Positions 39,224-64,000 of a DNA stretch of 64,000 nucleotides are shown here, one piece after another. The position numbers and the translations under genes were made by a program. Below the pieces are notes generated by a model. The model was not told the DNA's origin. It did not search any database and saw only the letters and a list, made by a program, of their open reading frames with translations. Within the stretch, counting starts at the first letter, position 1, and each line of letters starts with the position of its first letter. This DNA is from Thermodesulfobacteriota bacterium (GTDB lineage Bacteria > Desulfobacterota > Binatia > Bin18), in NCBI GenBank assembly GCA_964291405.2, contig OZ219926.1, positions 480,001 through 544,000 of the forward strand, in the 5' to 3' direction.

Positions 39224-39318
39224 GTCCAAAGGAGAGCTGACTTTTCCCATCTGGCGAGACAGTCGTATGTTCGTCAGCACCCGCTAGGACCACAGTGCAA
39301 CGCAGACAGGGGGGTGGC

Positions 39319-41748
39319 ATGAGCACTGAAGAGCGTGGCTATTTATATACACTGGGGGAGCAGATTATTGCGCGGCGCAGGCTTGTTTTGCTGCTCGTTA
39401 CCGTCGCCACCCTGATTTTTGCCTCGTTTGCCGTCCAGCTCGACCTCGTCACGCGTTTCGACGAACAACTGCCGGAGAACCACCCTTTCATTCAGGTCCA
39501 TAAAACCTACGCGCCGACCTTTGGTGGGGCCAACGCCATCATGCTGATGTTGGAGGTTGAAGAAGGCACCATCTTCAATCAGGCCACGTTGACCAAGATT
39601 TTCAATATGACCCAGGCGTTGGAACGGGTGTATGGCGTAAATAACGAATTGGTCAACTCCATCGCCCACCGAACCAACCGCCGCGTGATCATGAAAAGTG
39701 GCGGGATGCAGGAAGTCGAGCCGGTCATGGAACGGGCACCCGAGACCGAGGAAGAAGTTGAACGCGTACGCCGGATCGTACATTCCTCACGGAATTTATA
39801 CGGCGTGCTGGTTTCGCTGGACGAAAAGGCCGCCCTGCTCAATGCCACTTTTATCGAGCAGCGGCTCGATTATCGGCGGCTGTTTGAGGAAGTCCGGCGC
39901 TCTATCGTTGAGCCATATGAGGATGACAACACACGGATTTATCTGGCCGGTCAACCGGCCCTGTACGGCTGGGTGTATTTCTACGCCAAGCAAGTCTACG
40001 TCATTTTTCTGGCAACGACGGTACTGCTGTGGTTGCTGCTGTACTGGTATTTTCACGATGTCCGAGGGGCGCTACGGCCCACCTTGACCGGTGTTATATC
40101 GGCCATTTGGGGGCTGGGATTTATCAAGATGATCGGCTTCAGCCTCGACCCCCTCACCCTCGTCATTCCCTTCTTTATTACCGCCCGGGCGGTCAGCCAC
40201 TCCGTCCAGATGCATGAACGCTATTATGAGGAGTATCGCAAGGCGAATGGGCAAAAAGAGCCGGCCATTATTGCCTCGTTCGCCGAGCTTTTCGTGCCCA
40301 CCCTGTCGGGTATCCTGACCGATGCCCTGGGCCTGTTGGTGATCCTGTTCGTGCCCATTGTGCTCTTGCAGAAGCTCGCCATTAGTGCGGCGGTGTGGAT
40401 TCTCGCCATTACCGTGAGCGAGCTCTTGCTGAACCCGATCGTCTACCACTACCTGCGTGAACCCGACATCCGAGTCGTTGAACGGCGCGAGAACGGGCTC
40501 TTCAGGCGCATTGTCTCGACTGCGGCGAATTTTCTCGTCTCCCCCGCAGGCAAAGGGCTGACGCTCGCCAGTTGGGCACTTGTTTTGGTCATAAGCGTCT
40601 ACTTCTGGCAAAATCTGGTGATTGGCGATCCAACCGCGGCCACCCCACTCCTGTACCGCGACTCTCCGCACAATACCGCCCATGCCCGCATCCAAGACAC
40701 CTTTGGTGGGGTTGAGCAGCTCATGGTTGTGGTTGAGCGTAAAGAACCGGAGAAAGAAGAGGCCGAAGACGCGAGCGAAAGCCTGAGTGCGCTCGACCGA
40801 TTTCGTCAGCAAAGCGAGGAGCCTTCATTGGCAACTCCTGAGGTCTTGCCCTGGATCGAACAATTTCAGCGTGCGCTCGAACGCGACCCGGCGGTAGGGT
40901 TGAGCTTCTCATTTGTGGATATTTTGTCGGTCGTAAATGGAGCCATTCATGAACAAGAACCCAAATGGGAGGTCCTTCCCCGACGCAGGAGTGAAGTCCG
41001 GCTCCTGCTCGCCTCCTACTTCTTCGGCACCTCATTTCAGGAAAGCGCACAGGTCATTGATCACCAGTATCGCTCTGCACCCGTCCGATTCTTTCTGACC
41101 GACCATCAGGGGGAAACCATTCGACGGGTTATTCAGCGGGCTCGCGCCTATATCGATGCCCACCCCAGTGACATCGCCCAGTTCCGGCTCGCCGGCGGCC
41201 CTATTGGCGTGTTGGCCGCTGCCAACGAAGAGCTGTTTCGGAATGATATTCTGGTTAATATTCTTGGTTTTGGCACGATCTTCCTTGTCCTCGTTATTAC
41301 CTACCGCTCGATCATGGCCGGGGTGTATATGATTATCCCTCTGCTCGTCGCGAACGCCGTGATTAACGCATATATGGGGGCCCGCGATATTGGTATTAAT
41401 ATCCATACCCTCCCAGTGGTGACGGTCGGCGTCGGATTTGGCATCGACTATGCCCTGTATGTTGTGAGTCGTATTATCGAAGAGCATCGGCTGGGTAGCG
41501 GGCTGGATGACGCGGTGAGGACGGCACTCGCAACGTCCGGGAAAGCGGTGACCTTTACCGCGCTGACCATGATCCTCGGTACGCTGTTCTGGACCATGTC
41601 CAGCCTCCGCTTTAGTGCAGAGATGGGGCTGCTACTCGCCCTCTGGATGGGGGTAAGTTTCTTGGCGACCATGACGCTTTTACCCGTTCTGGTTGCGCTC
41701 TTCAAACCGCGCTTTGTCACGGCACAGGCCGCCGGAGCCGCAGATTAA
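39319..41748 (+). CDS. MMPL/RND-family transporter, paralogue 1
   Basis: Two repeats of TM + periplasmic domain + 5 TM; FGGAN, ARAVSHSVQ, VGVGFGIDY, TSGKAV. Confidence 0.88.
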   Translation: MSTEERGYLYTLGEQIIARRRLVLLLVTVATLIFASFAVQLDLVTRFDEQLPENHPFIQVHKTYAPTFGGANAIMLMLEVEEGTIFNQATLTKIFNMTQALERVYGVNNELVNSIAHRTNRRVIMKSGGMQEVEPVMERAPETEEEVERVRRIVHSSRNLYGVLVSLDEKAALLNATFIEQRLDYRRLFEEVRRSIVEPYEDDNTRIYLAGQPALYGWVYFYAKQVYVIFLATTVLLWLLLYWYFHDVRGALRPTLTGVISAIWGLGFIKMIGFSLDPLTLVIPFFITARAVSHSVQMHERYYEEYRKANGQKEPAIIASFAELFVPTLSGILTDALGLLVILFVPIVLLQKLAISAAVWILAITVSELLLNPIVYHYLREPDIRVVERRENGLFRRIVSTAANFLVSPAGKGLTLASWALVLVISVYFWQNLVIGDPTAATPLLYRDSPHNTAHARIQDTFGGVEQLMVVVERKEPEKEEAEDASESLSALDRFRQQSEEPSLATPEVLPWIEQFQRALERDPAVGLSFSFVDILSVVNGAIHEQEPKWEVLPRRRSEVRLLLASYFFGTSFQESAQVIDHQYRSAPVRFFLTDHQGETIRRVIQRARAYIDAHPSDIAQFRLAGGPIGVLAAANEELFRNDILVNILGFGTIFLVLVITYRSIMAGVYMIIPLLVANAVINAYMGARDIGINIHTLPVVTVGVGFGIDYALYVVSRIIEEHRLGSGLDDAVRTALATSGKAVTFTALTMILGTLFWTMSSLRFSAEMGLLLALWMGVSFLATMTLLPVLVALFKPRFVTAQAAGAAD

Positions 41749-41984
41749 CCGCTTTGTCCGTGGAACACTTGAGGAGAAGAACCGAAGAAGAATATTCCCC
41801 CGATCCTGCCGCCCCTCCTCTGGGAGGGGGAAAAAGCCTCTTCTGAAACTATTGACAAATATGCCCTCTAATAAAGATAAAGCCATTATAGAAAGGATAC
41901 GATTATGAGCCGTGCCCCCCCGTGCTGACCAAACCACCGCTCGCATATATCTCGCAGGAATATTATAAAAAAGGAGAGGATTTT

Positions 41985-43310
41985 ATGAGAACCTATTGGT
42001 GGGCCAGAATTGCCTGCGCACTGACGCTCGTAGGCGCGATGAGTCTGTCAGCCCCGAGCTGGGTGGCTGCCGATGTCAACCCAGGGGACACCATTACCAA
42101 AGACAACATGGCCGAGGCAGGTGAACTCCTTATCCCAGGCATACAGTGGTTTGTCGAAAACGGCATGCCCATTAAGGTCATTGAGTATAAGAAAGTCAAT
42201 CTGCCTAAACTCTACGCCGAAGCGACCGAGAAATACTCAGGCCAAGTCCAAATCTCGGCCGACGGCCGGGAAATGTTAAACTACGTAGCCGGTCTCCCGT
42301 TCCCAAACATTGATCCCAACGACCCCCTGGCTGGGGCGAAGATCATGTGGAACCAGGAGCAGAAGCCTTCTTATGTGGACAACGTGGGGACCGAATGGAT
42401 CATGGAACTCGTCAATAACCGGGGCGAGATGGAACGTATGTACGGCTCCCAGTTCTGGCGTCGGATGATGTGGACCGGTCGTCTGTACACCGACCCCAAA
42501 CCGATTGTCCCGAACAACCCGCCAATGCGGTATACGGAGCAGTTTGGTCCGCTTTTTATTCCCAACGACCTGAAGGGCGCTGGCGTGCTCAATACGCGCT
42601 ATCTGCCGACGAACATTCCGGATGACTCCTATATGTATCTGCCTGAGCTGCGTCGTGTGCGTCGTATCAGCGTCGCAAACCGCTCGGATGCCTTCTGGGG
42701 CACGGACATGGATCTCGACTCCCTGTGGGGCATGAATTCCAAGCACGCGTACTGGAAGTGGCGCCTCTTGGCCGAAAAGCAAATTCTGGCCCCGGTCCAT
42801 ATGGGACAATACGGCACCAGAGATGTCTGGTGTGCACAGCCGGACGGCAGAAGCGGCGTGATCGCGGGTATGCCGTGCAATATCAACTGGGAAAAGCGCA
42901 ACGTCTACGTTGTTGAAGGACTCCCGGTTGCCTACAGCCAGTATGCCTATTCCAAGCGTATCATGTATGTCGACAAAGACTTCTGGGCTCAGAATTTCTC
43001 GGAAATGTACGACAACGGTGGTGAGCTGTGGAAGCTCTGGTTTAATATGTTTGAGTATGGCCCCCTGCCGTACGAAGGCTATCCGGTAAAACCGATCCGT
43101 GGTGCCAAATACAATTACACGGATGACTGGGCCTTCACTCCGCATGGGATGCAGATGGACCTCCAGCTTGCCCACTTCAGCAAGTGGGATGCGCCATCCG
43201 GCTATGAGAAGCGGGAAGACTGGATCAACGAGTGGTATTTCAACGAGGCAATTGAATTCAACACCTCCAAAGCGTTCTCGGTGAACTTCCTCATCCAGAG
43301 CGCCCGTTAG
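41985..43310 (+). CDS. DUF1329 (LolA-like lipoprotein-sorting fold) periplasmic protein, paralogue 1
   Basis: Signal peptide; NYVAGLPFP, KIMWN, DDSYMYLPELRRVRR, YSKRIMYVDK, YDNGGELWK. Confidence 0.82.
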   Translation: MRTYWWARIACALTLVGAMSLSAPSWVAADVNPGDTITKDNMAEAGELLIPGIQWFVENGMPIKVIEYKKVNLPKLYAEATEKYSGQVQISADGREMLNYVAGLPFPNIDPNDPLAGAKIMWNQEQKPSYVDNVGTEWIMELVNNRGEMERMYGSQFWRRMMWTGRLYTDPKPIVPNNPPMRYTEQFGPLFIPNDLKGAGVLNTRYLPTNIPDDSYMYLPELRRVRRISVANRSDAFWGTDMDLDSLWGMNSKHAYWKWRLLAEKQILAPVHMGQYGTRDVWCAQPDGRSGVIAGMPCNINWEKRNVYVVEGLPVAYSQYAYSKRIMYVDKDFWAQNFSEMYDNGGELWKLWFNMFEYGPLPYEGYPVKPIRGAKYNYTDDWAFTPHGMQMDLQLAHFSKWDAPSGYEKREDWINEWYFNEAIEFNTSKAFSVNFLIQSAR

Positions 43311-48373: not shown

Positions 48374-49672
48374 ATGAAGCTGAGAGCAAATTTTTTCGCC
48401 GCGGTCGTATGCGCGGCAGCGGTAAGCTGGGTCGTCCCAGCCGCCGCGAACTTCCCCCAACCGGGGGATGTTGTCGATCAGAGCAATATGGCCGAGGCGG
48501 CTGATGTCCTCAATCCAACGGCAAACTGGATGATCAACCAGGGCATGAAGATGAAGGTCATCGAGTACCGCAAATACGAATGGCCCAGGTTGTACTCAGA
48601 GGCTACAGAAAAATTTGCCGGTCAAGTGAATTTGTCAGAAGATGGTCGGACGTTGACCAACTACGTCGCTGGGTGCCCGTTTCCTAACATTGACGTCAAC
48701 GATCCCCTCGCTGGCGCCAAGGCGATGTGGAACCACGAGTACTTTCCCGATTTCACGGACAACGTGGGCTGCCCCTGGATTCTCGAGCTTGTGAACTACA
48801 AGGGCGAGATGGAGCGCTTCTACGCCTCGCACTTCTGGCGGCGTATGAAGTGGGAAGGTCGGCTGGTCATGGACCCGAAGCCGATCGCGCCGTTTAACCC
48901 ACAGATCACCTATACCGAGCAATGGGGACCGCTGTACGCCCCCAACGATCTGAAGGGCGCCGGCGTGCTGAACTTCCGGTATACCCCGCTCGAAAATCCG
49001 GATGACTCGTATATGTATCTGCCCGAACTGCGCCGTGTACGTCGTATCAGTGTGGCGAACCGCTCAGACGCCTTCTGGGGCACGGACATCGATATCGACT
49101 CGATTTGGGGCTTCAACGCCAAGCCCGGCTACTGGACGTGGCGCGTCTTAGCCGAGAAAGAGACTCTTATGTCGGCCCATTCAGGCCATTATCAGAGTCG
49201 AGCCGTATGGGCCGCTGCACCGGACGGCCGGAGCGGGGCGACTGCCTTCCTGTGGTCAGACCAAGTGCAGTGGGAACGTCGGCCGGTATGGGTCGTCGAA
49301 GGCATCCCGACCGGGTATAACCAGTATGCCTACTCCAAGCGGGTTATCTACCTCGACAAGGAGTATTTCAACACCTCATGGTCAGAGACGTATGATCAGG
49401 GTGGTGAGATCTGGAAAACCTGGACTCAGCTCATGAATATTTCGACGAAGCCCTCAGACAAGTATATTGCGGCAGACTACGACGAGGAGCAGGTCTTTAC
49501 CCACAACGGTCAGGTGATCGATATGCAGATTACCCATAGCTCCAAGTGGGACTGCCCTCCGGGCTATGACGAATACTACGTGCCGAAGTATGACTGGTAC
49601 TTCAATACCGCCAAGGAGTGGAACACGCCTGAGGCGTTCACCGTGAATTTCCTGATCCAGAGCGCTCGCTAA
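48374..49672 (+). CDS. DUF1329 periplasmic protein, paralogue 2
   Basis: Shares NDLKGAGVLN, DDSYMYLPELRRVRRISVANRSDAFWGTD and VNFLIQSAR with 41985..43310; RBS GGAGG. Confidence 0.82.
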   Translation: MKLRANFFAAVVCAAAVSWVVPAAANFPQPGDVVDQSNMAEAADVLNPTANWMINQGMKMKVIEYRKYEWPRLYSEATEKFAGQVNLSEDGRTLTNYVAGCPFPNIDVNDPLAGAKAMWNHEYFPDFTDNVGCPWILELVNYKGEMERFYASHFWRRMKWEGRLVMDPKPIAPFNPQITYTEQWGPLYAPNDLKGAGVLNFRYTPLENPDDSYMYLPELRRVRRISVANRSDAFWGTDIDIDSIWGFNAKPGYWTWRVLAEKETLMSAHSGHYQSRAVWAAAPDGRSGATAFLWSDQVQWERRPVWVVEGIPTGYNQYAYSKRVIYLDKEYFNTSWSETYDQGGEIWKTWTQLMNISTKPSDKYIAADYDEEQVFTHNGQVIDMQITHSSKWDCPPGYDEYYVPKYDWYFNTAKEWNTPEAFTVNFLIQSAR

Positions 49673-49702
49673 ACGTCACAGCCCCCTGCCCTGTTGTGAT
49701 GA

Positions 49703-49738
49703 AAAAATCCCCCGTACAACCCTGTACGGGGGATTTTT
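49703..49738 (+). terminator. Rho-independent terminator
   Basis: AAAAATCCCCCGTACA-ACCC-TGTACGGGGGATTTTT. Confidence 0.8.
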
Positions 49739-49912
49739 ATTTTGATAAGAGGGTTCTTCGTTTTGAGGAGGAAAGTGGCGACAAGGTCGAGGCAACCATA
49801 CTCCATCGTCCCTTGACTTTTGTCGTAAAAAAATGCAAAGGACGGAAGGCACGAAATCTTGTTGGGGAGTCCTCGTGCAAGTCGTCCACACCAAAAGGGA
49901 GGTCACCACATT

Positions 49913-51048
49913 ATGAATACCAATAGGGCCTGCTTGGCCCGGAGATGCACCAGCCTTTTCGCCTTGCTGTTTACTCTTGCGACCCTACTTGGCCTGGCGG
50001 GCTGTCACGGAGGACAGCCAACCGAATGGAGCACATCATTGCTTGCGCGGACCGACAAATTTTTTGGTGCAGCCCACGTCACGGACGACACCTTTGTCGT
50101 TGTGGGCTACGCCGGACGCATCCTGCGGACTGAAGATGCGGGAAACACCTGGGCAGACGTTGATAGCGGTGTGATCTGGTCGCTCAACAACGTCAGCTTC
50201 TCCGGTGAGCATGGCTGGGCAGTCGGCCATAATGGGGCCGTCATTCACTCTCGGGACGGCGGGAAAACGTGGGCTCCACAAACCGCGGACACGGACAAGA
50301 CCCTGATGGCGGTCTCCTTTGTTGACCAACTGCACGGCTGGGCGTGTGGCGATGAATCAACCTGGATGTGGACCGACAACGGTGGAGAAACCTGGAACGT
50401 CGAGCGTATGGACGTGTCCCAGATCGGCCTGTCCGAGTTCACCAGTCTGGCCGTGCCTGACATCATCTATTACAGCGTGCAGTTTCTGGACAAAAACACC
50501 GGCTGGATAGTCGGTGAATACGGCAATGTCCGCTATACCACGGATGGCGGCAAAACCTGGGGGGCACAGCACGACACTCTGCTCGATGAACTCGTTGAGC
50601 AGGGGGCGTGCGGGACGTCATGGTGATGGGTGCGTTTTTCAAGGTACACTTTAGTGACCCCGATAATGGAGTGATGGTCGGCGCCGGTGGGGCGATTGCG
50701 AAAACCACTGACGGCGGTCAGAACTGGACCTGGATCGCGCGTGAGGGCAGCAATGCAGATGTCCCGGCACTGCATCTCTACGATGTTGATACGCCGGGTG
50801 GAAACGGTCGCCTTGTCCTCGCTGGCATGAATGCGGTCGTGCTTGATACCACCGACAGCGGGGCCAACTGGGGTCCGACCCAGACGCCGGATGGGGTCTA
50901 CACCTGGATCAATGCTGTTGCGTTTGGGGAAAATGGCAAGGGCGTTCTGGTCGGCGGGAAAGGCACCATCATGATCACCAGCGATGGGGGCAAGAGTTGG
51001 GAGGTGGTTGAGCAGGAAGTGGAAGAAGAGGAGGCCGCCGCGCATTAG
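49913..51048 (+). CDS. YCF48/BNR-repeat beta-propeller lipoprotein, split by one frameshift
   Basis: LAGC lipobox; repeated (S/T)xDGGxTW Asp-boxes in both halves; adding one G to the G5 run at 50602-50606 joins them into 378 aa. Confidence 0.82.
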
Positions 51049-51116
51049 TTCGGCGGCTGAACGTCGGCGCACAGCAGCATCACGCAGAGTGAAAGATTAG
51101 CAAAAAGGAGAAAACC

Positions 51117-53507
51117 GTGGCTGAGAGAAAGATACCGACTATTGAAGAGCTCGAAGCGCATTCCAGGGATCGTGCCGCCCTCTATCGTTTGGGAGAGGGC
51201 CTGATCCGCAACCGCTTTCTGATCACGATCGGGGTGTTGCTTATCACCGGCTTTATGGCCTGGCAGGCGTTATCGATCCAAATGTCGACCAGCTTTAACG
51301 ATCTGCTGCCCTACCGCCATCCGTTTGTCCGCGTGCATTTCCGCTTTGCCGATCAATTCGGCGGGGCGAACAATGTGAACGTGATGCTGAAAGTGGATAA
51401 GGGTGACGTCTTCACAGTCGGTCTGCTCAGAAAAGTCTACGATATGACGCAGGCCATGGACCGCGTCACCGGGGTGAACCACGACCAGATCGAGTCGATC
51501 GGCCACCGCACGACGCGTTATCTCACCGTGTCAGGAGGAACGATCGCCACTCCCCCGGTCATGCGGCGTCCACCCAAGACGGACCGGGAAGTCGCCGAAA
51601 TCCAGGAGATTTGCTACAACACCGAAACCATTTACGGCCAGTTGGTCTCCCTGAACGGTCAGGCCCTCCTGCTGAAAGCCAACTTCATTGAGGGTAGACT
51701 TGACTACAGGACCGTCTTTGAAGAGATTCGCCGGACCGTCAAAGAACCGTTTGAGACTGCCGAGGAGACGATCTGGGTGGCCGGCGAGCCCCAGCTCTAC
51801 GGCTGGATCTACTACTACGCGAACGAGGTGTTCTACATCTTCCTCGCCGCGGCGGCAGTGTGCTGGATTTTGCTCTACCTGTACTTCCACGATTGGCGGG
51901 GGGCATTGCGCCCGACCATCACCGGCGTTGTATCGGCCTTTTGGGGTCTGGGTATCCAGGCCATGATGGGCTTCTCCATGGACCCGCTGGCTTTGGTGAT
52001 TCCATTCTTTGTCACGGCCCGGGCCATAAGCCATTCGGTGCAGATGCACGAACGCTATTATGAGGAATACCACAAGTGGCAGTGGAATAAGGAAAAGGCG
52101 ATTGTCGCCGCGTTTGCCGAATTATTCGTGCCAACCCTGAGCGGTATTATTACCGACTCGTTGGGCATGCTCGTCATCGTGGTTGTGCCGGTGGTCATCC
52201 TGCAGAAGATCGCCATCTCGGCCTCGATCTGGGTCGCCTCGGTGGCGATCAGCGAACTGCTCATGAACCCGGTGGTGTACTACTACCTCAACGCGCCTGA
52301 CCCGGAAAAGGTCCTGAAACGCGAGAACGGCTGGTTCCAGCGTTTTGCCGACGTATGCGCAGCCTGGATCACGACGCCCAAAAACGCCAGGATGATTGTT
52401 ATCTTCTGGGTTGTTTCCTTTCTCATTGCCCTGACCCAGATTCGGCACCTTACCATCGGCGACCCGACCGCGGCCACGCCGCTGTTGCATCTGGAGTCGC
52501 CGTATAATCAGGCTCATATCGAGATTCAGAAGTATTTCGGTGGAATTGAGCCCCTCATAATTGTGGTTGAGGGACGAGACAAAGAAGTGCTCAAGAACCC
52601 CGATTTATTGCGGCAACTTGAAAAATTCCAGCGTCACATGGAACGCGACAGGGACATTGGCTACAGCTTCTCGCTGGCTGACATCATTCAGGCCATTAAT
52701 ATGACTTTCTATGATATGCAGCCACGCTGGGGCTCCATCCCGGCCAGTTCCCGGCGGGTGAGTTCGCTCTTCTTCTACTATTTTGCCGGAACACCACCCG
52801 GCGAGTCATCGAAATTTCTCGACCCGAGCTATACGGTTTCACGGGTGACGTTCTACTGCGCCAATCACCAGGGAGATAATATCGCCCGGATTATCCAGGA
52901 AGCGCGGAAATTCGTTGCCGACAATCCCCTGCCCAATGCAGACTGGCGTCTGGCCGGTGGTTTGATCGGGGTGACGGCCGCGGCGAATGAAGAGATCCTC
53001 AAAAACAACCTGTATATGCACGGCCTGGGTTTTGGGACGATCTTCCTGATCGTGATGTTTACCTACCGTTCCCCGGTCGCCGCAGTTGTGATGATGATCG
53101 GCCTGTTTCTGGCCGACGGTGTGGTGAATGCGTATATGGGTTTCCGTAATATCGGCATCAACTTGCAGTCGCTGCCGGTGGTGACCGTCGGGGTGGGATT
53201 CGGCATTGACTACGCCTTATATATCGTCAGTCGAGCGGTGGAAGAGTATGACGGCGATATCAACGACGCCGTCCGCCTGGGACTTGCGACAGCGGGGAAA
53301 GCCGTGGCCTTTACTGCGGCAACCCTGATCACCGCGACGGTCCTGTGGGCATTCTCGAACATTCGCTTCTGTTCGGAAATGGGCCTGCTGCTGGCGTTGT
53401 GGATGGGTATCAGCTTCCTCGGCGCCTGTACCTTTGTCCCGTCGGCATTGGTGCTCTGGCATCCGAAGTTCTTTGTTCGGGCGGCCAGGGAAGGTATTAT
53501 TGCCTAA
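51117..53507 (+). CDS. MMPL/RND-family transporter, paralogue 2
   Basis: Same motifs as paralogue 1 (FGGAN, ARAISHSVQMHERYYEEY, LPVVTVGVGFGIDYALY). Confidence 0.88.
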   Translation: MAERKIPTIEELEAHSRDRAALYRLGEGLIRNRFLITIGVLLITGFMAWQALSIQMSTSFNDLLPYRHPFVRVHFRFADQFGGANNVNVMLKVDKGDVFTVGLLRKVYDMTQAMDRVTGVNHDQIESIGHRTTRYLTVSGGTIATPPVMRRPPKTDREVAEIQEICYNTETIYGQLVSLNGQALLLKANFIEGRLDYRTVFEEIRRTVKEPFETAEETIWVAGEPQLYGWIYYYANEVFYIFLAAAAVCWILLYLYFHDWRGALRPTITGVVSAFWGLGIQAMMGFSMDPLALVIPFFVTARAISHSVQMHERYYEEYHKWQWNKEKAIVAAFAELFVPTLSGIITDSLGMLVIVVVPVVILQKIAISASIWVASVAISELLMNPVVYYYLNAPDPEKVLKRENGWFQRFADVCAAWITTPKNARMIVIFWVVSFLIALTQIRHLTIGDPTAATPLLHLESPYNQAHIEIQKYFGGIEPLIIVVEGRDKEVLKNPDLLRQLEKFQRHMERDRDIGYSFSLADIIQAINMTFYDMQPRWGSIPASSRRVSSLFFYYFAGTPPGESSKFLDPSYTVSRVTFYCANHQGDNIARIIQEARKFVADNPLPNADWRLAGGLIGVTAAANEEILKNNLYMHGLGFGTIFLIVMFTYRSPVAAVVMMIGLFLADGVVNAYMGFRNIGINLQSLPVVTVGVGFGIDYALYIVSRAVEEYDGDINDAVRLGLATAGKAVAFTAATLITATVLWAFSNIRFCSEMGLLLALWMGISFLGACTFVPSALVLWHPKFFVRAAREGIIA

Positions 53508-54120: not shown

Positions 54121-54363
54121 GGAGCGGTCTATTAAAGAAAGCCGACGCATTTGTCAAGAGCAGAAACACAGGAAGGAAATGCCGTCTGGGCAGTTGCAAA
54201 ATATGAAGAATAGCGCTAGAAGCAGCCTGGAATACCAAATCATCTTTTGCATAATGCATTGCACTAAGGATCTATGGGGAAAGGGGGTGACCTGCTGCAA
54301 CCAGGGAAACAGCAAGTGAGTCAAGGTAGGGAGGATAATTCTTTGTTACAGGAGGGAAAGTTT

Positions 54364-56663
54364 ATGATCAAACACAACGGGAAAAAGCATTCGGGCCTGA
54401 GAGGACTGGTGGCCGGGCTAGCCATCGCAGCCGGGCTCGTTTGGCTCACAAGCCCCGCGCAAGCGGTGGTCCGGGTGGGCGACTCAGAGATTCAAGTCGT
54501 GTACGAGATGCAGCACGCATTTCAATTTGACGGCAGCCCTGGAGATAATTTCGAGTGGGTGCAGTGGCGTAACGAGTTGCGCGTGGAGTACGAGTATCAG
54601 GATCTCGTGTCAACCGAGGGCGGGTTGTTCGGTAAGAACATCAAGATCCCAGGGGTGCGGCGCGCTGACTTCTCCTTCATGTATCGGGGCCGCTTTGACC
54701 CGGTCTATGAAGTCCGCGACAAGTATGACGATATGTACTCCCACCGCATCAAGCAGTTCAAGTCCTTTACCTTTCCCGAGAACGGCTTTCGGGAAATGAA
54801 TCTGGACGTGGACTTTGGGGATGTGATGGGCCACCGGCTGTCGATGAAGCTGGGCAAGCAGCAGATCGTGTGGGGGGAATCCGATCTGTTCCGCTCCATT
54901 GACATTGCCAACCCGCTACGGCTGGACCAGAACCAGGCGGTGGGAGAAGCCTTTGAGGACTTCCGGAGTCCGATCTGGGCCATCAAGTTTCTGTACGACA
55001 TCGGGAACGTCGGATCGTTCTGTCCAACGTCGGTCTGGAGTTGTTCTACACCCCGCGCTGGCGGTCACTCGTGCAGCACCTGGTCCTGGAAGGCGGCTGG
55101 GGCGGCCTGCGCTATGACGACCCGAACTATATTGGCGACGTGGAAGATTACTTTGATTCGCCAACCTCTCCTGGCACCTTAACCACCAAGGGCGTGCCTT
55201 GGGGGCCATACCATGACTACGCCCGGAGTCGTCACCCCTGGTCCGTGTTCCGGGTCGGGCGCAACCTGGCGAATATGGCCCCGGACAGCGGGTGTAATGC
55301 CGATGTCCCATGTACGGACGACGCCGCCGGCCGCGGCACCAACTTCCTGTACCGGATTGGCGGCGGTCGCCATACCCACCACATCCGCGGTACAAAGTGG
55401 AAAAACAGCATGGTCGGCGCACGGATGATGGGGAAGATTTTTGACAACTTCGACTTCACCCTGAACTATATGTACAAGCGCGTCGATCCGTATGCCGTGT
55501 TTGACCTGCCGTCCTTCTTCGGCACAGACCACGACGACGGTCTCGGCAGGGTGGACCAGTACGGTCGGCGACTCGGCTCCTTCAGCAACACTCTGCTGGG
55601 TTCACCCGGCGGGTTCTTTGCGCATGACCCGACCAACCCGAACAATATGCTCAACTTCCGTCGCGCCCTGGACCGGTGTTTCGAGGAGAATCGAGCCTCG
55701 TTTTTCAGCGGGGTCGACATGTTAGGTTACAGCCAGGACGGCAACCCGAACAACGACCGACTTGCGACCGCCTGCTTCGAGGTTGCCCACTCGTATCCGT
55801 GGACGAACGTGTTTGGCTTCACGGTTACCTATAATGACTTTGATTACACCGGTGCGGTGTTCCGCCTGGAGCAGAGTTGGTCGACCAACGAAGGGCGCAA
55901 CTGGGGCGGCTCGAACTATGGTGGGCAGTCTCAGGCGCACTTTGATGCGAAGTTGCAGCACGCTCGGGAGGTCTATCTGGACAGACTGGATGACAACCCG
56001 GAGTACGCCGCAGCGGTCGATCAATATGCGGCCGACAACGGGGTTGACCGTCGTGGCGCGGTATTCGGCGCACCGGACGTTGACCCGCTCATCACCGGAC
56101 CGCACAGCGATGGAGAAGGCAATCCCTGCGTACCGGGTGTGAACGTGTGTCCGGGCAAGAAGATCAACGGCGCGCGGATCAAACAGGGATCGTCTGTGTG
56201 GCGGAGCATGATCGGGTTTGACCTGATTCAGTCCATTCAGTCCTTTCCGGGCATGGGCTGGACACGCGGCCTGCCGGGCGGTATTGGTGACCAGGCCACC
56301 TTCTACACCTTCCAGGCCCTGACCACCTATCAGAACGATAACCGGCCCTCGGGCGTCAACGCCTTCACCAATGCGCCGCGAGACCGGCACCATCGGTTTA
56401 ATCAGTTGTACACCTTTGGCCTGTCGGGCTTCTACTTCCGAGGCAAACTGGAACCGCTGTTTGCGGTCGCCTACTCGGTGAACTCCAAGCATCCGCTGAT
56501 TCTGGCCCAGAGCTACTGGCACGGCTTCCTCTTCCGCAACCTCGACATCTTTGCCGGCACGGTCATGTATATGGGCGGCCGCAACGACACCGATGGTACG
56601 GGGCTGCACCTGTGGGCCGACCGCGATCTGTTCTGGATTCGCCTCCAGTACTACCTGCTGTAG
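54364..56663 (+). CDS. DUF1302-like outer-membrane beta-barrel, copy 1 (one frameshift)
   Basis: Signal peptide; KLGKQQIVWGESD.FRS.D..NP; C-terminal FWIRLQYYLL; one base missing at ~55020 relative to the paralogue; 766 aa if repaired. Confidence 0.78.
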
Positions 56664-56684: not shown

Positions 56685-56714
56685 GGGGCGGGTATGATAC
56701 CCGCCCCTTTTTTT
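56685..56714 (+). terminator. Rho-independent terminator
   Basis: GGGGCGGGTAT-G-ATACCCGCCCC-TTTTTTT. Confidence 0.8.
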
Positions 56715-56783
56715 CCCACCTCACCCGTAACACCTCCACTTACGTTTCTTGACTTTTCCATGTGGACGGCATTGGATAGGTGT

Positions 56784-57365
56784 ATGAAGGGTCTTCTGCT
56801 CACCTGCTTACTTTGGGCCGGGGCGCTAGTTGTCCCGCCTGTTCCCGGCTGGGCTCAAGACCGCTCGTCGGATGCAGCCAGCCGGGAAATTATTGAGCGA
56901 CTGACACGGGTCGAAACTCGGCTGGACGGATTAGAAGATAGCATCAGACAACTGCGGGAGGACATGAACACCCAGAACCAACAACTCCGCACGGATATGC
57001 AGCAACTGCGCGAGGACATGCAGCTTCAGAACCAGCAACTGCGCGAGGACATGCAGCTTCAGAACCAGCAACTGCGCGAGGATATGCAGCAACTCCGCGA
57101 AGACCTGAATCATCAATTGGACCGGCACTTTCAGCTCATCCTCGGCGTCCTGGCGGCCTTTACTTTCATGTTCATCAGCATCCTCGGCTTCGCCATTTGG
57201 GACCGTCGTACCATGGTCAGGCCATTTGCCGACAAGGTGAAAAATCTGGAAGACGACCTCTCAACAAAAGGCCGTCGGTTAGGTGTCATTCTTGATGCAC
57301 TTCGGTCCCTGGGACAGCGCGACGAGCGAGTCGCCGCCATTCTCAAACGCCTGAATCTGCTGTAG
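56784..57365 (+). CDS. Signal peptide + coiled-coil + C-terminal TM protein, copy 1
   Basis: ...GWA|QD signal, IERLTRVETRLD, QQLREDM repeats, TM segment, WDRR, RDERVAAILKRLNL. Confidence 0.72.
   Translation: MKGLLLTCLLWAGALVVPPVPGWAQDRSSDAASREIIERLTRVETRLDGLEDSIRQLREDMNTQNQQLRTDMQQLREDMQLQNQQLREDMQLQNQQLREDMQQLREDLNHQLDRHFQLILGVLAAFTFMFISILGFAIWDRRTMVRPFADKVKNLEDDLSTKGRRLGVILDALRSLGQRDERVAAILKRLNLL
57000..57090 (+). repeat. 33-bp coding tandem repeat (~2.7 copies)
   Basis: CAGCAACTGCGCGAGGACATGCAGCTTCAGAAC exact at 57000 and 57033, partial at 57066. Confidence 0.9.
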
Positions 57366-57488: not shown

Positions 57489-57560
57489 CATTTTCGCTTG
57501 ACATTCAGGCCATTAAAGTATTATCCATGGGGGACCAATCTTTTCAAAGGAGGGAAGGCT

Positions 57561-59818
57561 ATGGTCGAACGCACTAGGGGGCGAAGGCGAAGGGCAGGCC
57601 TGAGGGGATTCGTGGCCGGGCTAGCCATCGCAGCGGGACTTGTATGGTTGACGAGCCCCGCACAAGCGACGATCCGAGTGGGGAATTCGGAGATTCAAGT
57701 CGTGTACGAGATGCAGCACGCATTTCAATATGACGGCAGCCCAGGGGATAACTTCGAGTGGGTGCAGTGGCGCAACGAGATGCGCGTGGAGTACGAGTAT
57801 GGTGATCTTGTGACGCCCGAGGGCGGGTTGTTCGACAAGAACATCAAGATCCCGGGGGTGCGGCGCGCCGACTTCTCCTTTATGTATCGCGGTCGCTTTG
57901 ACCCGGTCTATGAAGTCCGCGACAAGTATGACGACATGTATCCCCACCGTATCAAGCAGTTCAAGTCCTTTACTTTTCCCGAGAACGGGTTCCGGGAGAT
58001 GAACCTGGACGTGGACTTCGGGAATGTGATGGGCCATGGGCTGTCGATGAAGCTGGGCAAGCAGCAGATCGTGTGGGGCGAATCCGATCTGTTCCGTTCC
58101 ATTGACATTGCCAACCCGCTACGGCTGGACCAGAACCAGGCGGTGGGCGAATCCTTTGAGGACTTTCGGACCCCTATCTGGGCGATCAAGTTCCTGTACG
58201 ACATCGGGAACGTCGGGACGTTTATGTCCAACGTCGGTCTGGAGTTATTCTACACGCCCCGCTGGCGACCCATCACTCAGCACCTGGTGTTGGAAGGTGG
58301 CTGGGGCGGCCTGCGTTACGACGACCCGAGCTTCATTGGCGATCCGACTGATTACTTTGATTCGCCGACCTCACCAGGCATCTTGACCACCAAGGGCGTC
58401 CCTTGGGGGCCATACCATGACTACTCCCGGATTCGCCATCCCTGGTCGTTGTTCCGGGTCGGGCGCAACCAGGCGAGGATGGCAGGTGATTCCGGGTGTA
58501 GTGGTTCAGGACCGTGTACGGACGATACCGCCGGCCGGAATGCAAACTTCCTGTACCGGATTGGCGGCGGTTCGAAAACCCACCATATTCGGGGCACGAA
58601 GTGGGACAACAGCATGGTCGGCGTGCGGTTGATGGGGAAGATTTTCGATAATTTTGACTTTACTCTGAACTATATGTACAAGCGCGTCGATCCGGGCGGC
58701 GTGTTCCATTTCGACACCTTCTTTGCCGACTCACCGCTCGATGCGGATGGCAAACGGACGGTGGGCTTGGACGGCCGCCCGCAATCGGCCGGATACGCAG
58801 GAGGTGTCCCAACGGAGGGGAGATTTGCGGGTAGAGCTGTCGCCCCTGGGACGTTTGTTCATGACCCGACTGACCCGACAATATGCTCAACTTCCGCCGC
58901 GCCCTGGACCGGTGTTTCGAAGATAACATTGCGACCAACTTCGTCGGGGTTGACATGTACGGCTACAGCCAGGATAGCAACCCGAACAACGACCGATTGG
59001 AACCGCGTGTTTCGACGTGTCTCACTGGATGCCGTGGACAAACGTGTTTGGGTTCACGGTCACGTATAACGACTTCGACTACACCGGTGCGGTGTTCCGC
59101 CTGGAGCAGAGTTGGTCCACCAATGAGGCGCGCAACATAGCACCGGTCGCGAACGGCGGCAGGTCTCAGGCGCACTACGAGGCGCGCGTAGCCGCGGCGC
59201 AAGCCAGGGCCATAGCAGAGGGCAGGACGGGCTCGCAGATTCCGACCCATCCCTTTACGGACGGCGACGGCAACCCCTGCGCCGAGGGACACGGCAGCTT
59301 CTGTCCCAGCCCACGCCAGCGCGTTGCGCGCATTAAGACCGGCACGTCTCGTGTGGCGGAGCATGATCGGCTTTGACCTGATTCAGTCCATTCAGTCCTT
59401 TCCGGGCATGGGCTGGGCACGCGGCCTGCCGGGCGGTATTGGTGACCAGACCACCTTCTACACCTTCCAGGCGCTGACCACCTATCAGAACGATAACCGC
59501 GCAACAGGCCTGAACGCCTTCACCAATGCCCCGCGTGACCGGCACAGTCGGTTTAATCAGTTGTACACCTTTGGCATGTCGGGCTTTTACTTCCGGGGCA
59601 AACTGGAGCCGCTGTTTGCGTTCGCCTACTCGGTCAACGCCAAGCAGCCGTTGCTTCTGGCCCAGACCTACTGGCACGGCTTGTACTTCCGCAACCTCGA
59701 CCTCTTTGCCGGCACGGTCATGTATATGGGCAGCACCAACCAGGTCGATGCCACGGGGCTGCACCTGTGGGCGGAGCGCGACCTGTTCTGGATTCGTCTC
59801 CAGTACTACCTGCTGTAG
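57561..59818 (+). CDS. DUF1302-like outer-membrane beta-barrel, copy 2 (three frameshifts; pseudogene or sequencing errors)
   Basis: Colinear with copy 1; indels at ~58878 (-1), ~59001 (-1) and ~59350 (+1); 752 aa if repaired; no in-frame nonsense codons seen. Confidence 0.72.
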
Positions 59819-60037: not shown

Positions 60038-60098
60038 GTGGTGAGACGTTCCTTCCTGAAACCAGGAAGCATTGACGTGGGCAGCATTGTATAGACAC

Positions 60099-60578
60099 AT
60101 GAGGGGTCTTCTGCTCACCTGTTTACTCTGGACCGGGGCGCTGGTCGCCCTGCCCGCTTCCGGCTGGGCGCAAGATAACGCCACGGACGCAGCCGGCCAT
60201 GAGACTATCGAGCGGCTGACACGGGTGGAAACTCGCCTGGATGAAGGACTGAAAAGACTGGAAGGCAGCATCACGCAACTCCGTGAGGACCTCAGTCTCC
60301 AAAACCGGCAACTCCGTGAGGACATGCAGCAACTCCGGGCCGACATGAACAAACAGAATGAACAACTCCATGACCGACTGGGCAATTTTATGCTGCTCTT
60401 TACCGGCGTGATCAGCATCATCGGGGTTATCCTGGCCAGCATCATCGGGTTTACCGGACGGGAACGGAAAGGGGCAAGGACGGAGCGGAGTGAATTGGCA
60501 GACATCCGCGCTGCCTTACACGCCTGGGCCCAACGCGATGAGAACGTTGCCGCCGTGCTCAAACAGTTCAACCTGTAG
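60099..60578 (+). CDS. Signal peptide + coiled-coil + C-terminal TM protein, copy 2
   Basis: Paralogue of 56784..57365 (MRGLLLTCLLW, IERLTRVETRLD, QRDENVAAVLKQFNL) with a shorter coil. Confidence 0.72.
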   Translation: MRGLLLTCLLWTGALVALPASGWAQDNATDAAGHETIERLTRVETRLDEGLKRLEGSITQLREDLSLQNRQLREDMQQLRADMNKQNEQLHDRLGNFMLLFTGVISIIGVILASIIGFTGRERKGARTERSELADIRAALHAWAQRDENVAAVLKQFNL

Positions 60579-60722: not shown

Positions 60723-62411
60723 ATGGCGACAGTTGACGGCGGGACGCTGATTGGACGGATATTACAGGAACAGGACGTGAAGTATATGTTTGCCGTGAAT
60801 GGCGGACACACCTTCCCCATTCTGGCCACCCTCAGAGATAATGGCATCAAACTCATCCACATGCGCCACGAGCAAGCCACCGCCTATGCCGCGGATGGCT
60901 ACGCCCGTGTGACCGGCAAACCCGGCATCTGCTGTGTCACGGCCGGTTGTGGCCTGACCAATGCGGTGACCGGCCTGTGTGGCGCCGGTCTGACCAATAG
61001 TGCGGTCGTCTGTCTCGCGGGTCAGCACCCCACTACCGAGGACTTTATCGGCTCCTTCCAGGAAGCCTACGGTTCGGATGTGGTGAGTTCGTTCTCGAAA
61101 TTTGCCAAGCGCGTACTCGACTGGTCAACCATTGAAATCGACCTGCGGCAGGCATTTCGGGAAGCCACCTCAGCCCCCCAGGGCGTCTCCCTGCTCGAAA
61201 TTCCAACCAATATTCTCTACCACCAGGAGGACGAGTCCAAACAGCGCAAAGGCGCAAAAGTCTATGGTCCGGATGAACTCCGCTTCCAGGGTGACCCGCG
61301 CCAGATTGAACGCGCGGTTGAACTCATCTTTCAGGCGAAAAAACCGCTCATTGCCGGTGGAGATGGAATTTTCTGGTCCGGGGCCGAGGCCGAACTGAAA
61401 GAATTGGCCGAACTCACCAGTACCCCGGTGTACTGCCGTCGCGCCGGCCAGGGTGCGGTTGACGAAGACCACCAACTCGCCATTCGTGGCGCGTGGAAAA
61501 AGCCGTTTACGGGCGAAGCCGATGTGGTGCTGGCCATTGGCTTCAAATTCTGGAGTGGAGAAAAATTCGGGCAACCCCCAACCTGGAGCGATAAAGCCAC
61601 CTATATCCAGGTCGATGCCACCGCCCAGCGGGTTGGCTGGCACGTCCCAGCCGAAGTCGGCATTGTCGGCGACCCCAAGCTGGTGCTGCGTCAGATGATC
61701 GACACGGCCAAGGCGATGCAGCTTGACTTTAGCGCCAAGCGGGAGAGTCCCTGGCTCCAGAACATGGTTGAGGTGCGCGAGAACTATAATAAGCTCATCA
61801 GCGACCGTGAGCAGCAGCATCACGGTGCCACCCCTATCCACCCCGACCGTCTGGCCAAGGACCTCACCTCTGTTATCGATAAGGATGCAACCCTCATCGT
61901 CGACAGCTTCACGCTGAGTGGCTACACGAGCCAGTGGTTTACCGCCCATGAGCCGGGTCAGATTGTCGACGCCGGGCCACTGGCCCCAGTCGGACACGGC
62001 GTGGGGATGGGTATTGGGGTGCAGCTCGGGCGTCCGGGCAAACAAGTCATCGTGGTCAGCGGTGACGGAGGTCTGGGCATCGGCGGCATGGATATGGAGA
62101 CCGCAGCCAAATACAACATCCCGATTATTACCCTGCTGTGGAACAATAGCTCGTGGGGGCCGACGTTTGAGTCCATGCCCCTGCTCAAAGGCCGTACGGA
62201 CCCGTTCGATATGATTAAGGACATTCGCTATGACAAGGTGTTTGAACCTATGGGTGTCTACACCGAGCATGTGGAGCAGCCGGACGAGATTATTCCGGCT
62301 CTGGAGCGCGCCCTCTCCTCCGGTAAGACCTCGCTGATTAACGTGTTCGGCGATAAGAGCGTCGGGCACCCATCGCTCGGCGGGAACTTGTTAGGCTCAA
62401 CTCAGGTCTAA
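60723..62411 (+). CDS. Thiamine-pyrophosphate enzyme (acetolactate synthase/2-hydroxyacyl-CoA lyase-like)
   Basis: MRHEQATAYAADGYARVTG, GDGG...WNN TPP-binding motif; RBS GGAGGAG. Confidence 0.88.
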   Translation: MATVDGGTLIGRILQEQDVKYMFAVNGGHTFPILATLRDNGIKLIHMRHEQATAYAADGYARVTGKPGICCVTAGCGLTNAVTGLCGAGLTNSAVVCLAGQHPTTEDFIGSFQEAYGSDVVSSFSKFAKRVLDWSTIEIDLRQAFREATSAPQGVSLLEIPTNILYHQEDESKQRKGAKVYGPDELRFQGDPRQIERAVELIFQAKKPLIAGGDGIFWSGAEAELKELAELTSTPVYCRRAGQGAVDEDHQLAIRGAWKKPFTGEADVVLAIGFKFWSGEKFGQPPTWSDKATYIQVDATAQRVGWHVPAEVGIVGDPKLVLRQMIDTAKAMQLDFSAKRESPWLQNMVEVRENYNKLISDREQQHHGATPIHPDRLAKDLTSVIDKDATLIVDSFTLSGYTSQWFTAHEPGQIVDAGPLAPVGHGVGMGIGVQLGRPGKQVIVVSGDGGLGIGGMDMETAAKYNIPIITLLWNNSSWGPTFESMPLLKGRTDPFDMIKDIRYDKVFEPMGVYTEHVEQPDEIIPALERALSSGKTSLINVFGDKSVGHPSLGGNLLGSTQV

Positions 62412-62429
62412 GGAAAGAATCGCCAATCC

Positions 62430-62462
62430 AAAAAAGGGCAGGCATAATGCCTGCCCTTTTTT
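62430..62462. terminator. Bidirectional terminator
   Basis: AAAAAAGGGCAGGCA-TAA-TGCCTGCCCTTTTTT between convergent genes. Confidence 0.85.
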
Positions 62463-62502
62463 CTTGGTCCATATAGGTCTCACTGTCCCCTGAGCAACCG
62501 CC

Positions 62503-62757
62503 CTACCCGCCCTCTTTGCGCATCACGATTTCGATTTCATCAAGCGGAGAAACCCCTCGATTGCGAATATGACAGTTCCAGCCGGCAAACTGGCGTAAGT
62601 ACGTAAACACTTCCCGGACCAGACCTGGCTTTACTTCTCTTTCCCATTCGTTCAGCCATTCGTCCCCCTCAAAATCGTCATCGTCCCATGCCTCGGGGGG
62701 GATGTCCGCACTCAGAGAGAAGCGCAGATTGAACCGATGCTCATCTTTTTCTGCCAT
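62503..62757 (-). CDS. Small acidic hypothetical protein
   Basis: 84 aa, 9 bp downstream of the selenoprotein gene on the same strand. Confidence 0.6.
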   Translation of the reverse strand: MAEKDEHRFNLRFSLSADIPPEAWDDDDFEGDEWLNEWEREVKPGLVREVFTYLRQFAGWNCHIRNRGVSPLDEIEIVMRKEGG

Positions 62758-62766
62758 ACAGCGCCT

Positions 62767-63387
62767 TTATGTGACGCCCAGCGCCGCCAGGTCTTCCAGA
62801 TAGGCTTCCGCCGGCACCATGCCGATTTGGCGCCGTTTCCCGCCAATCAGGACGGTCGGCACCGCACTCACGAAATACGTATTCATCGCGTCTTCGCACT
62901 GCTGACGCACCTGGTCCTGGAGGGCGGTATCCTCAATATCGTGCAGGAAGGTGTTCATATCGAGACCCACCTGCCGGGCAATCTCCACGCAGGTCTCCTT
63001 TTCAATCAGACTCTTGTTCTCGATAAAAAAGGATCGGAAGAGTCCGGAGTGAAAGCGGAGGAAGGCGTCTTCGCCCTGACGCTGGGCGGCCGTACCGGCT
63101 TCCAGACCGGGCATGCTCCAGCGTGGAAATTCCGCATGCGGCCACATGGAATATTCCAGGCCATCCGGTTCAGCCAGGGCTGACGCCCGCTGCCAGGCCT
63201 GCTCCACATAGCTGTCCTTAAACTGAAACGAGCGAGCCTCATAATGCGGACGAAGGGCAAAAGGATGCCATTTGACACTGACTCGATCACCAAAGCGTTC
63301 CTTGATTTTGCGAAGCCGCTCCGCGGCCGGGAAACACCACGGTCACAGATAGTCCGAGAATTCGATGATTTCAATTGGTGTATCCAT
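62767..63387 (-). CDS. DsbA/FrnE-family thioredoxin-fold selenoprotein (U-P-W-C)
   Basis: ATG 63387 reads MDTPIEIIEFSDYL-TGA-PWCFPAAERL and continues in frame into ORF 62767..63207, which has the cis-Pro AVPT; 206 aa; hairpin after the TGA. Confidence 0.85.
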
Positions 63388-63533
63388 ACGGTTACCCCCC
63401 TGTTGTACTGCCCCAGTTCTACCCGAAACAGGCTACGCCGACCAGGGGCCGGTCCAATCCCTTGCATTTTCCACAAAACAGCAGTACCACCATAAAAATA
63501 CTAGACACCGCATCACAGTAAGGAGAACGAGTC

Positions 63534-64000
63534 ATGCGAGTCATTGATGGAGATGCCCATTTTCTCGAACCGTTGGATCTTTTTCGGCGCTATATTGACC
63601 CTACCTACCGCGAGCAGGCGATGCAGATTGAAACCGACCGGGTGAGCGGGGAAAAAAAGTTTCTGGTCAACGAGAAACCCATGCAGATCTTCGATGTCGA
63701 ACAATTTCTGAGCGCGGTTGCCGGCTACGGCCAAAAGGAACAAGGCCGGGACCTGAACACCTTCGACCGGTACCATTATTACAGTACTGAGTGGTCAGAC
63801 ATGGGCCAGCGGGTGCAATTCCTCAATGACGAACAGATGGCCTGCCAGGTCATCTACCCGACGCTCGGCCTGTTCTGGGAGGGCGAGGTGGACGACCCCT
63901 ATCTGGCCGACGCCCACTGCCGCGCGTATAACACCTGGACATTTGAGGTGTGCCACTCACACAAGGACCGTCTCTACCCTGCAGCGCATATCTCACTCCG
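63534..64000 (+). CDS. Amidohydrolase-2 family protein, running off the window end
   Basis: MRVIDGDAHFLEP...QVIYPTLGL...CRAYNTW...DRLYPAAHISL; RBS AAGGAG; not in the ORF track. Confidence 0.85.
   Translation, partial: MRVIDGDAHFLEPLDLFRRYIDPTYREQAMQIETDRVSGEKKFLVNEKPMQIFDVEQFLSAVAGYGQKEQGRDLNTFDRYHYYSTEWSDMGQRVQFLNDEQMACQVIYPTLGLFWEGEVDDPYLADAHCRAYNTWTFEVCHSHKDRLYPAAHISL

Follow-up and report, generated by a model that had tools for sequence, protein, structure and literature searches.

DsbA-like selenoproteins with a UxxC active site (COG2761, PF01323) have been on record since a 2005 report from the Sargasso Sea (PMC1088965). Three forms of them were counted in ocean data (PMC2398784), and a 2026 review includes them in its list (PMC13188914). 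The literature places FrnE proteins in the cytoplasm and gives them a CP(W/F)C site, and the published account of Deinococcus radiodurans FrnE reports disulfide-isomerase and insulin-reducing activity, protection against cadmium and diamide, and recycling via a C-terminal CxxxxC motif (PMC8945050). In the same account, CxxxxC is absent from the FrnE proteins of S. roseofulvus and D. maricopensis (PMC8945050), and this motif is therefore not defining for the subfamily. The bacterial selenocysteine-insertion (bSECIS) consensus is given as a loop of 3-9 nt, a stem of 4-16 bp, a G in the first two loop positions, a spacing of 16-37 nt, and an energy of -7.5 kcal/mol or lower (PMC13188914).

We analyzed a gene in a 64,000-nt stretch of Binatia DNA (the window; contig OZ219926.1, positions 480,001 to 544,000). 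A table-11 open-reading-frame list places the start of this gene at GTG 63207, 60 codons 3' of ATG 63387. Read from the upstream ATG, the minus-strand frame continues to TAA 62769-62767 and contains a sole TGA, at codon 15. The start, the 60-codon extension, and the single TGA at 63343-63345 had all been proposed in an original prediction, whose coordinates were correct. The residues around the TGA are MDTPIEIIEFSDYL-U-PWC (FSDYL-U-PWC), giving a U15-P-W-C18 active site. Like form 1 of the DsbA-like selenoproteins, the gene combines PF01323, UxxC with one Sec, an in-frame UGA followed by a hairpin, and Cys homologues. Because D-Y-L-U-P also fits the DxxUP motif of form 2, assignment to form 1 rests on the second Cys, with the published forms compared by description. 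This type of selenoprotein is already known, the Binatia gene is an additional member, and the class itself will not surprise a selenium specialist. Our literature search found no paper on selenocysteine use in Binatia or Binatota; the single paper that mentions both Binatota and selenocysteine has the latter only within the title of a reference, and 'selen' does not occur in the text or 9 supplementary files of the Binatota genome paper. The input to BSepDB includes at least 11 Binatia genomes, listed with no Sec status (PMC13326102), and these genes may already be in that database.

A scan of GTDB genomes using an alignment of 30 homologues yielded 51 loci at 24-94% identity, with record titles that include Binatia, Methylomirabilota, and Bryobacterales. 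One locus (L045) is partial and lacks the site. The codon is TGA in 47 of the 50 loci spanning the site and TGC or TGT in three (L047, L048, L050), counts that overstate independence because the loci are kin. Codon-level tests used 45 core sequences, comprising the window copy and L001-L044; L045 (partial), L046 (frameshifted), L049 and L051 (distant), and the three Cys loci were left out. We refer to the clade of the window copy (26 sequences, down to 63% identity) as clade 1 and to the other 19 core sequences as clade 2.

Features of the selenoprotein-type locus, in window coordinates
Feature	Position	Strand	Basis
FrnE-type DsbA-fold oxidoreductase gene, 206 aa	62767..63387	-	Pfam PF01323, FrnE profile, structure model
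Predicted selenocysteine codon, in-frame TGA, codon 15	63343..63345	-	47 TGA and 3 TGC/TGT among 50 loci
Cys18, resolving cysteine of UxxC	63334..63336	-	Cys in 45/45 core sequences
Cys164, further conserved cysteine	62896..62898	-	Cys in 43/45 core sequences
RBS-like G run	63395..63400	-	7 nt 5' of ATG 63387; read from sequence
SECIS-type hairpin GGCCGC-GGA-GCGGCU	63314..63328	-	Loop at 63322-63320; conserved in its clade
84-aa acidic protein gene	62503..62757	-	9-nt gap; 74 homologues
Bidirectional intrinsic terminator-like hairpin	62424..62468	.	Long, perfect inverted repeat bearing A/T tails

Fold, genomic setting, and likely function

Residues 7-195 of the protein matched the Pfam DSBA family PF01323 (E 1.6e-22; 80.7 bits vs a cut-off of 25.6). 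A profile built from 54 sequences had Deinococcus FrnE as its best match (E 4.8e-33, 117.7 bits), followed by SCO1869 and YjbH (76.1 bits), with the isomerase-like protein 3fz5 at 65.4 bits. A structure model computed from a wider alignment, with Cys replacing Sec, had a mean pLDDT of 96.6; an earlier model from a close and mostly truncated alignment (pLDDT 64.3) was discarded. In Foldseek comparisons, FrnE (5co3) was the best match to the model with a TM score of 0.81, and YjbH was second at 0.79. Pro177 of the model lies in a V-P loop that aligned with the V-P loop of FrnE, and UPWC near the N-terminus of the DsbA-like domain matches the site feature of the FrnE subfamily (cd03024). Thus D. 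radiodurans FrnE (5cnw/5co3) resembles the window protein in fold (24% identity), in its N-terminal C/U-P-W-C motif, in the V-P loop, and in having no signal peptide, but has Cys where the first active-site residue here would be Sec, and is a 260-aa protein with a CxxxxC tail that is absent from the 206-aa window protein.

No NCBIfam model scored at its cut-off. The nearest was NF041057, the Rcas_1661 family of thioredoxin-like (seleno)lipoproteins (DsbG-like), which shares a DsbA-type fold and a UxxC Sec site with the window protein, but the match scored 39.7 vs 190 bits and was limited to residues 82-196, and no lipoprotein signal was seen here. The model starts straight into a strand (E5-11), the N-terminus is polar, and the conserved start lies 14 codons 5' of the UGA, so that by inspection of the sequence, the starts, and the model no export signal peptide of the kind found in periplasmic DsbA is evident; the absence of a signal peptide, part of the original prediction, thus stood. 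Numerous other database matches, including P0059 and P0061, are proteins of 400-1200 aa with at least four tandem DsbA/DsbG-like domains bearing CPFC or CPYC sites.

Based upon these sequence and model comparisons, the product is very probably a cytoplasmic thiol/selenol-disulfide oxidoreductase of the FrnE type with Sec as the nucleophile, and its role is most likely that of a cytoplasmic disulfide reductase or isomerase. By analogy with the fold and biochemistry of FrnE, the U15 selenolate would attack substrate disulfides, C18 would resolve the resulting adduct, giving a selenenylsulfide, and either TrxR or a low-molecular-weight thiol would serve as the cellular reductant that recycles the enzyme. 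Its likely job would be to repair or reduce oxidised proteins of the cytoplasm during oxidative or disulfide stress. Cys164, which is not conserved in distant homologues, is a candidate relay in place of the absent C-terminal CxxxxC.

An alternative that we consider unlikely is that Sec is inserted but the main role is not that of a reductase, the protein serving instead as a redox-sensing adaptor like YjbH or as an enzyme like GST-kappa/HCCA isomerase tied to neighbouring hydrolase and SDR genes. YjbH (6ghb) was the best match in a single-sequence PDB search (E 7e-9) as well as the second by fold, and it shares the DsbA-like fold and a D-x-L-C-P motif with the window protein. Moreover, in most Binatia loci a same-strand run of HAD hydrolase, alpha/beta hydrolase, SDR, and inositol monophosphatase genes, itself downstream of tRNA-Pro and surE, lies 5' of the Sec gene. 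However, the family profile favours FrnE over both YjbH and 3fz5, and YjbH is an Spx adaptor of 298 aa. The gene run is also largely absent from Bryobacterales loci and is interrupted in the window and in 21 of 51 loci, all in the window's subclade, by a divergent Amidohydrolase_2 gene directly upstream of the Sec gene (63534-64000, + strand, in the window). No selenium or redox theme was seen among the neighbour genes.

The divergent amidohydrolase gene also suggests that the Sec gene and the 84-aa gene that starts 9 nt past its stop probably constitute a separate two-gene unit that ends at the bidirectional terminator. That terminator-like hairpin sits between the unit and a convergent TPP-enzyme gene; a terminator scan found 2 sites vs 1.5 ± 1.2 in shuffles, a count that is not significant alone, but the inverted repeat with its A/T tails was seen directly. 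As predicted, the neighbour is acidic (20 D/E vs 11 K/R). It belongs to a real family, with 74 homologues at 47-94% identity, none of which has a Pfam domain, and an Atlas search with it returned only unnamed clusters. The 84-aa gene adjoins the Sec gene in 26 of 51 loci, lies 7 kb off in one more, and was undetected in the remaining loci, several of which have short flanks. Co-transcription, also part of the prediction, is therefore plausible in the window, where the gap is short and both genes share the terminator 3' of them, but the two genes are not consistently paired across loci, and we reject a fixed partnership of the Sec gene with the 84-aa protein.

Elsewhere in the window, tandem DUF1302-like outer-membrane genes (54274-56663 and 57498-59818, + strand) share about 86% identity over their first parts and are split over several frames. 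These splits correspond to single-base gaps vs relatives in blastn alignments and are most likely assembly indels. A small-protein gene lies 3' of each DUF1302-like gene (56694-57365 and 60072-60578, + strand); the two products are related, each running from a hydrophobic N-terminal stretch through a repeat-rich coiled coil to a membrane segment at the C-terminus, and gave only weak Pfam matches. Two MMPL/RND-type transporter modules with secreted-looking neighbours (39295-43310 and 48374-53507, + strand) lie beside the DUF1302-like genes.

The hairpin downstream of the UGA

A spacer of 14 nt (63342-63329) separates the TGA from the hairpin, placing the start of the GGA loop 20 nt past the TGA. 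The original prediction had both the position and the sequence of this stem-loop right. The hairpin has a 6-bp stem, a 3-nt loop with G in the first loop positions, and an energy of -9.3 kcal/mol or lower, and it falls within the published bSECIS consensus, differing in that its loop lacks the common GU. Hairpins in 41 of the 47 TGA loci also fall within this consensus, the other six missing the -7.5 kcal/mol limit; one of the 41 passes only at a spacing of 18 nt. The same loose in-house consensus test, however, was passed by 109 of 250 random TGAs from the window. Folding was not significant vs shuffles in five windows (z between -0.96 and +0.69), and three of these five favoured a competing hairpin starting right past the UGA, although a ribosome stalled at the UGA would be expected to cover the 5' arm of the competitor. 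A search of 62400-63600 against Rfam gave 18 weak matches (E up to 10) with no SECIS family among them, and Rfam at its gathering thresholds likewise yielded none; bacterial SECIS elements are described as often unlike each other (PMC13188914). The bacterial SECIS search thus came out in favour of the hairpin by consensus but not by Rfam. The hairpin alone is weak evidence, and the weight is carried by conservation and covariation across relatives.

Multiple comparisons bear on this point. First, using a spacing window of 20-21 nt that was picked after the data were seen, the best hairpin fell at this distance in 40 of 47 TGA loci (the loop being no longer than 5 nt in 39 of these), in none of the three Cys loci, and after 8 of 250 random TGAs. 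Second, 14 of the 15 hairpin bases are invariant in the 26 clade-1 sequences, and codons 21, 22, and 24 show no third-base variation among the 26, whereas elsewhere just one four-fold site in 61 is invariant. Of 39 sites in clade 2, the four with the lowest entropy are those of codons 21-24. Third, the sister sequences form their stem in another register, in which a U bulges on the 3' side and the loop is of GUG type. In sequences with this clade-2-type stem (the 19 core sequences plus L046, L049, and L051), 92.1% of cells are paired and two-sided changes occur at three of the six pairs, which are found as G-C, A-U, and U-A. Their covariation score was reached by none of 500 shuffles and was lower in all six slid registers, a control that takes no account of relatedness and scores a structure derived from the same sequences in which it was counted. 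Finally, the loop G falls at +22 in both registers and is invariant in all 31 aligned TGA sequences, though residue 23 is Glu, Val, or Ala. The hairpin is therefore unremarkable taken alone, but its conserved spacing, frozen synonymous sites, compensatory pairs, and loop G uphold the original description of it as SECIS-like.

Reading of the in-frame TGA

The prediction placed the TGA at the first Cys of a CPWC motif, and alignment with Cys-containing homologues bore this out, with Cys in the UGA column in the three Cys loci and in 27 full-length distant proteins. Taken together with codon conservation, synonymous-site constraint, covariation, and fold, these homologues support the predicted UxxC selenoprotein of DsbA/FrnE type, and we conclude with high confidence that 62767..63387 is a real, well-supported hidden selenoprotein gene. 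Translation can begin from ATG 63387, which is conserved, and protein-level selection acts on the 14 codons that lead to the UGA; the hairpin in the coding sequence, as its conservation indicates, offers the loop G at +22 from the UGA. By the established bacterial pathway, a SelB-GTP-Sec-tRNA(Sec) complex would bind the loop and insert Sec at codon 15, whereas translation without selenium would be expected to end after 14 residues.

The host is a bacterium of a soil-and-sponge type. No sel genes were seen in the window or in the 10-kb flanks of the loci examined. The window has only four tRNAs, all of them ordinary, Rfam gave no tRNA-Sec, and ARAGORN found only tRNA-Pro and one tRNA-Arg, again with no tRNA-Sec, in the flanks of the 51 loci. 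Read-through scans of the window and flanks, which are noisy and return mostly shadow frames, gave no convincing second selenoprotein among the matches listed. A sponge-microbiome study describes SelA and SelB as co-occurring in most symbiont bins (PMC5649159), and its supplement gives 2 SelA, 1 SelB, 0 SelD, and 2 COG2761 proteins for sponge bin18, which is 87% complete. From its name and host, bin18 would be the Aplysina genome of Binatota order Bin18 (PMC8262859), and it probably belongs to Binatia.

The sequence evidence establishes recoding of the UGA and not the identity of the inserted residue. Hairpin-dependent insertion of Cys, or of Cys and Sec alternately, by a selC*-type tRNA-Cys with a UCA anticodon would therefore give the same picture, and such tRNAs, accompanied by another SelB, have been reported from Desulfobacterales and Syntrophobacterales (PMC7609411). 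We regard this reading as improbable. The descriptions of selC*-type tRNA-Cys come from anaerobes (PMC7609411), whereas published work portrays Binatota as aerobic methylotrophs (PMC8262859); PF01323 proteins with UxxC and a SECIS element are a listed Sec family; and bin18 has SelA (PMC5649159), which would be needed only by the Sec route.

Selenocysteine insertion is still more strongly favoured over the idea that the UGA is a true stop, in which case the locus would be a pseudogene or would encode a product of 146-184 aa from an internal start, as annotated. In-frame GTG starts do occur downstream, and 55 of 56 homologues in protein databases are annotated in short form, with starts 3' of the active-site motif and hence without it; the exception, P0036, corresponds to the TGC locus L047. 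However, loss of the motif from 55 of 56 entries is expected because gene callers terminate at UGA. The predicted starts are also inconsistent, giving annotated lengths of 113-232 aa, and the short forms lack strand 1 as well as the catalytic motif. Moreover, across the 45 core sequences no part of the gene is better conserved than the codons that precede the UGA. Protein identity to the window copy is 92% for codons 2-14 vs 77% for codons 31-206, with 181 synonymous and 47 non-synonymous differences in 44 comparisons that are not independent. The start codon lies exactly 14 codons 5' of the UGA in 46 of 47 TGA loci (12 codons in L049), and is mostly preceded by a GGAG or GGGG run. In the 47 stop-bearing loci, the site is always TGA and never TAA or TAG. 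A true stop is accordingly very improbable, and the annotation of the clade can be corrected to restore the catalytic N-terminus missing from these database entries.

Two further possibilities have a negligible chance of being right. A sequencing or assembly error for TGC or TGT, which the single-base gaps in the two nearby DUF1302-like genes might suggest, is refuted by recurrence of the TGA in 47 separately assembled genome records, and a variant code with UGA read throughout as Trp or Gly (tables 4 or 25), for which nothing speaks beyond the single in-frame TGA, is contradicted by TGA stops that terminate long window ORFs (30604-32019, 35733-38444) and homologues L027, L034, and L039 and by codon usage in the 45 core genes, which use TGG 235 times and TGA 45 times, once per gene and always at the Cys-aligned codon-15 site. 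Recurrence of the TGA, conservation before it, TGG usage, and TGA stops elsewhere thus practically exclude an error, a pseudogene, or a code in which UGA is Trp.

Distribution and evolution of the site

The nearest loci, at 88-94% identity, are titled Candidatus Binatia, and Binatia or Binatota is named in 32 of the 51 titles. In a quick tree of 91 proteins, from which L045 and L046 were left out, the Binatia and Bryobacterales genes formed one clade of 47 rows (SH-aLRT 99), comprising 45 TGA genes, one truncated entry, and one Cys gene. Binatia can be added to the groups for which there is evidence that selenocysteine is used. Six loci (L021, L022, L033, L038, L039, L045) are titled Enterobacteriaceae or Klebsiella pneumoniae; their neighbouring genes are common to Binatia loci and those in the tree (all except L045) nest among Binatia loci, and the titles are probably wrong.

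The 26 perfect-stem sequences form one group, whose support of 93 falls short of the starred level, and are nested among bulged-stem sequences, which suggests, on a parsimony reading, a single switch of SECIS register within the clade. Tentatively, these genes may represent an uncatalogued, near-purely Sec FrnE subfamily fixed across Binatia, in which the register switched once with the loop G kept at +22; the combined proposal is doubtful enough that we offer it only as a possibility. In the proposed switch, synonymous swaps and a Val-to-Glu change might have converted a bulged-U stem with a GUG-type loop to the perfect 6-bp stem with a GGA loop. If this were true, it would mark an aerobic Binatia lineage as a selenocysteine user and provide a natural experiment, indicating either that SelB needs the position of the G and not the sequence of the stem or that SelB co-evolved with the switch.

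The Bryobacterales locus L047 has a TGC codon yet still forms (10034-10079) the stem found in its TGA sisters, with compensation at the outer pair (-6.4 vs -9.8 kcal/mol). By parsimony, it is probably a Sec-to-Cys reversion with a remnant SECIS element; such reversions are described as known but uncommon (PMC1794560). Together, the two SECIS registers and this probable reversion provide a compact natural test of SelB recognition. TGA also occurs in two distant lineages, represented by L049 and L051, and the tree needs four changes at the site, which argues that Sec was gained or lost several times in the wider family. L048, a Cys copy that groups with the TGA locus L049, has a hairpin at about the same place (10031-10076) with G third in the loop. 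L046 (10001-10614) carries TGA but shifts frame near residue 105, reflecting either assembly error or decay.

Among the best 150 representative matches, 50 are single-domain relatives of 170-260 aa, of which 27 have a full CxxC motif, 14 begin just past the motif, and nine do neither. Thirteen distant homologues (about 30% identity; P0071, P0078, P0080, P0085, P0099, P0100, P0114, P0140, P0144, P0151, P0154, P0169, P0183) also begin just past the motif, are scattered over the tree, and are candidates for additional unannotated Sec forms.
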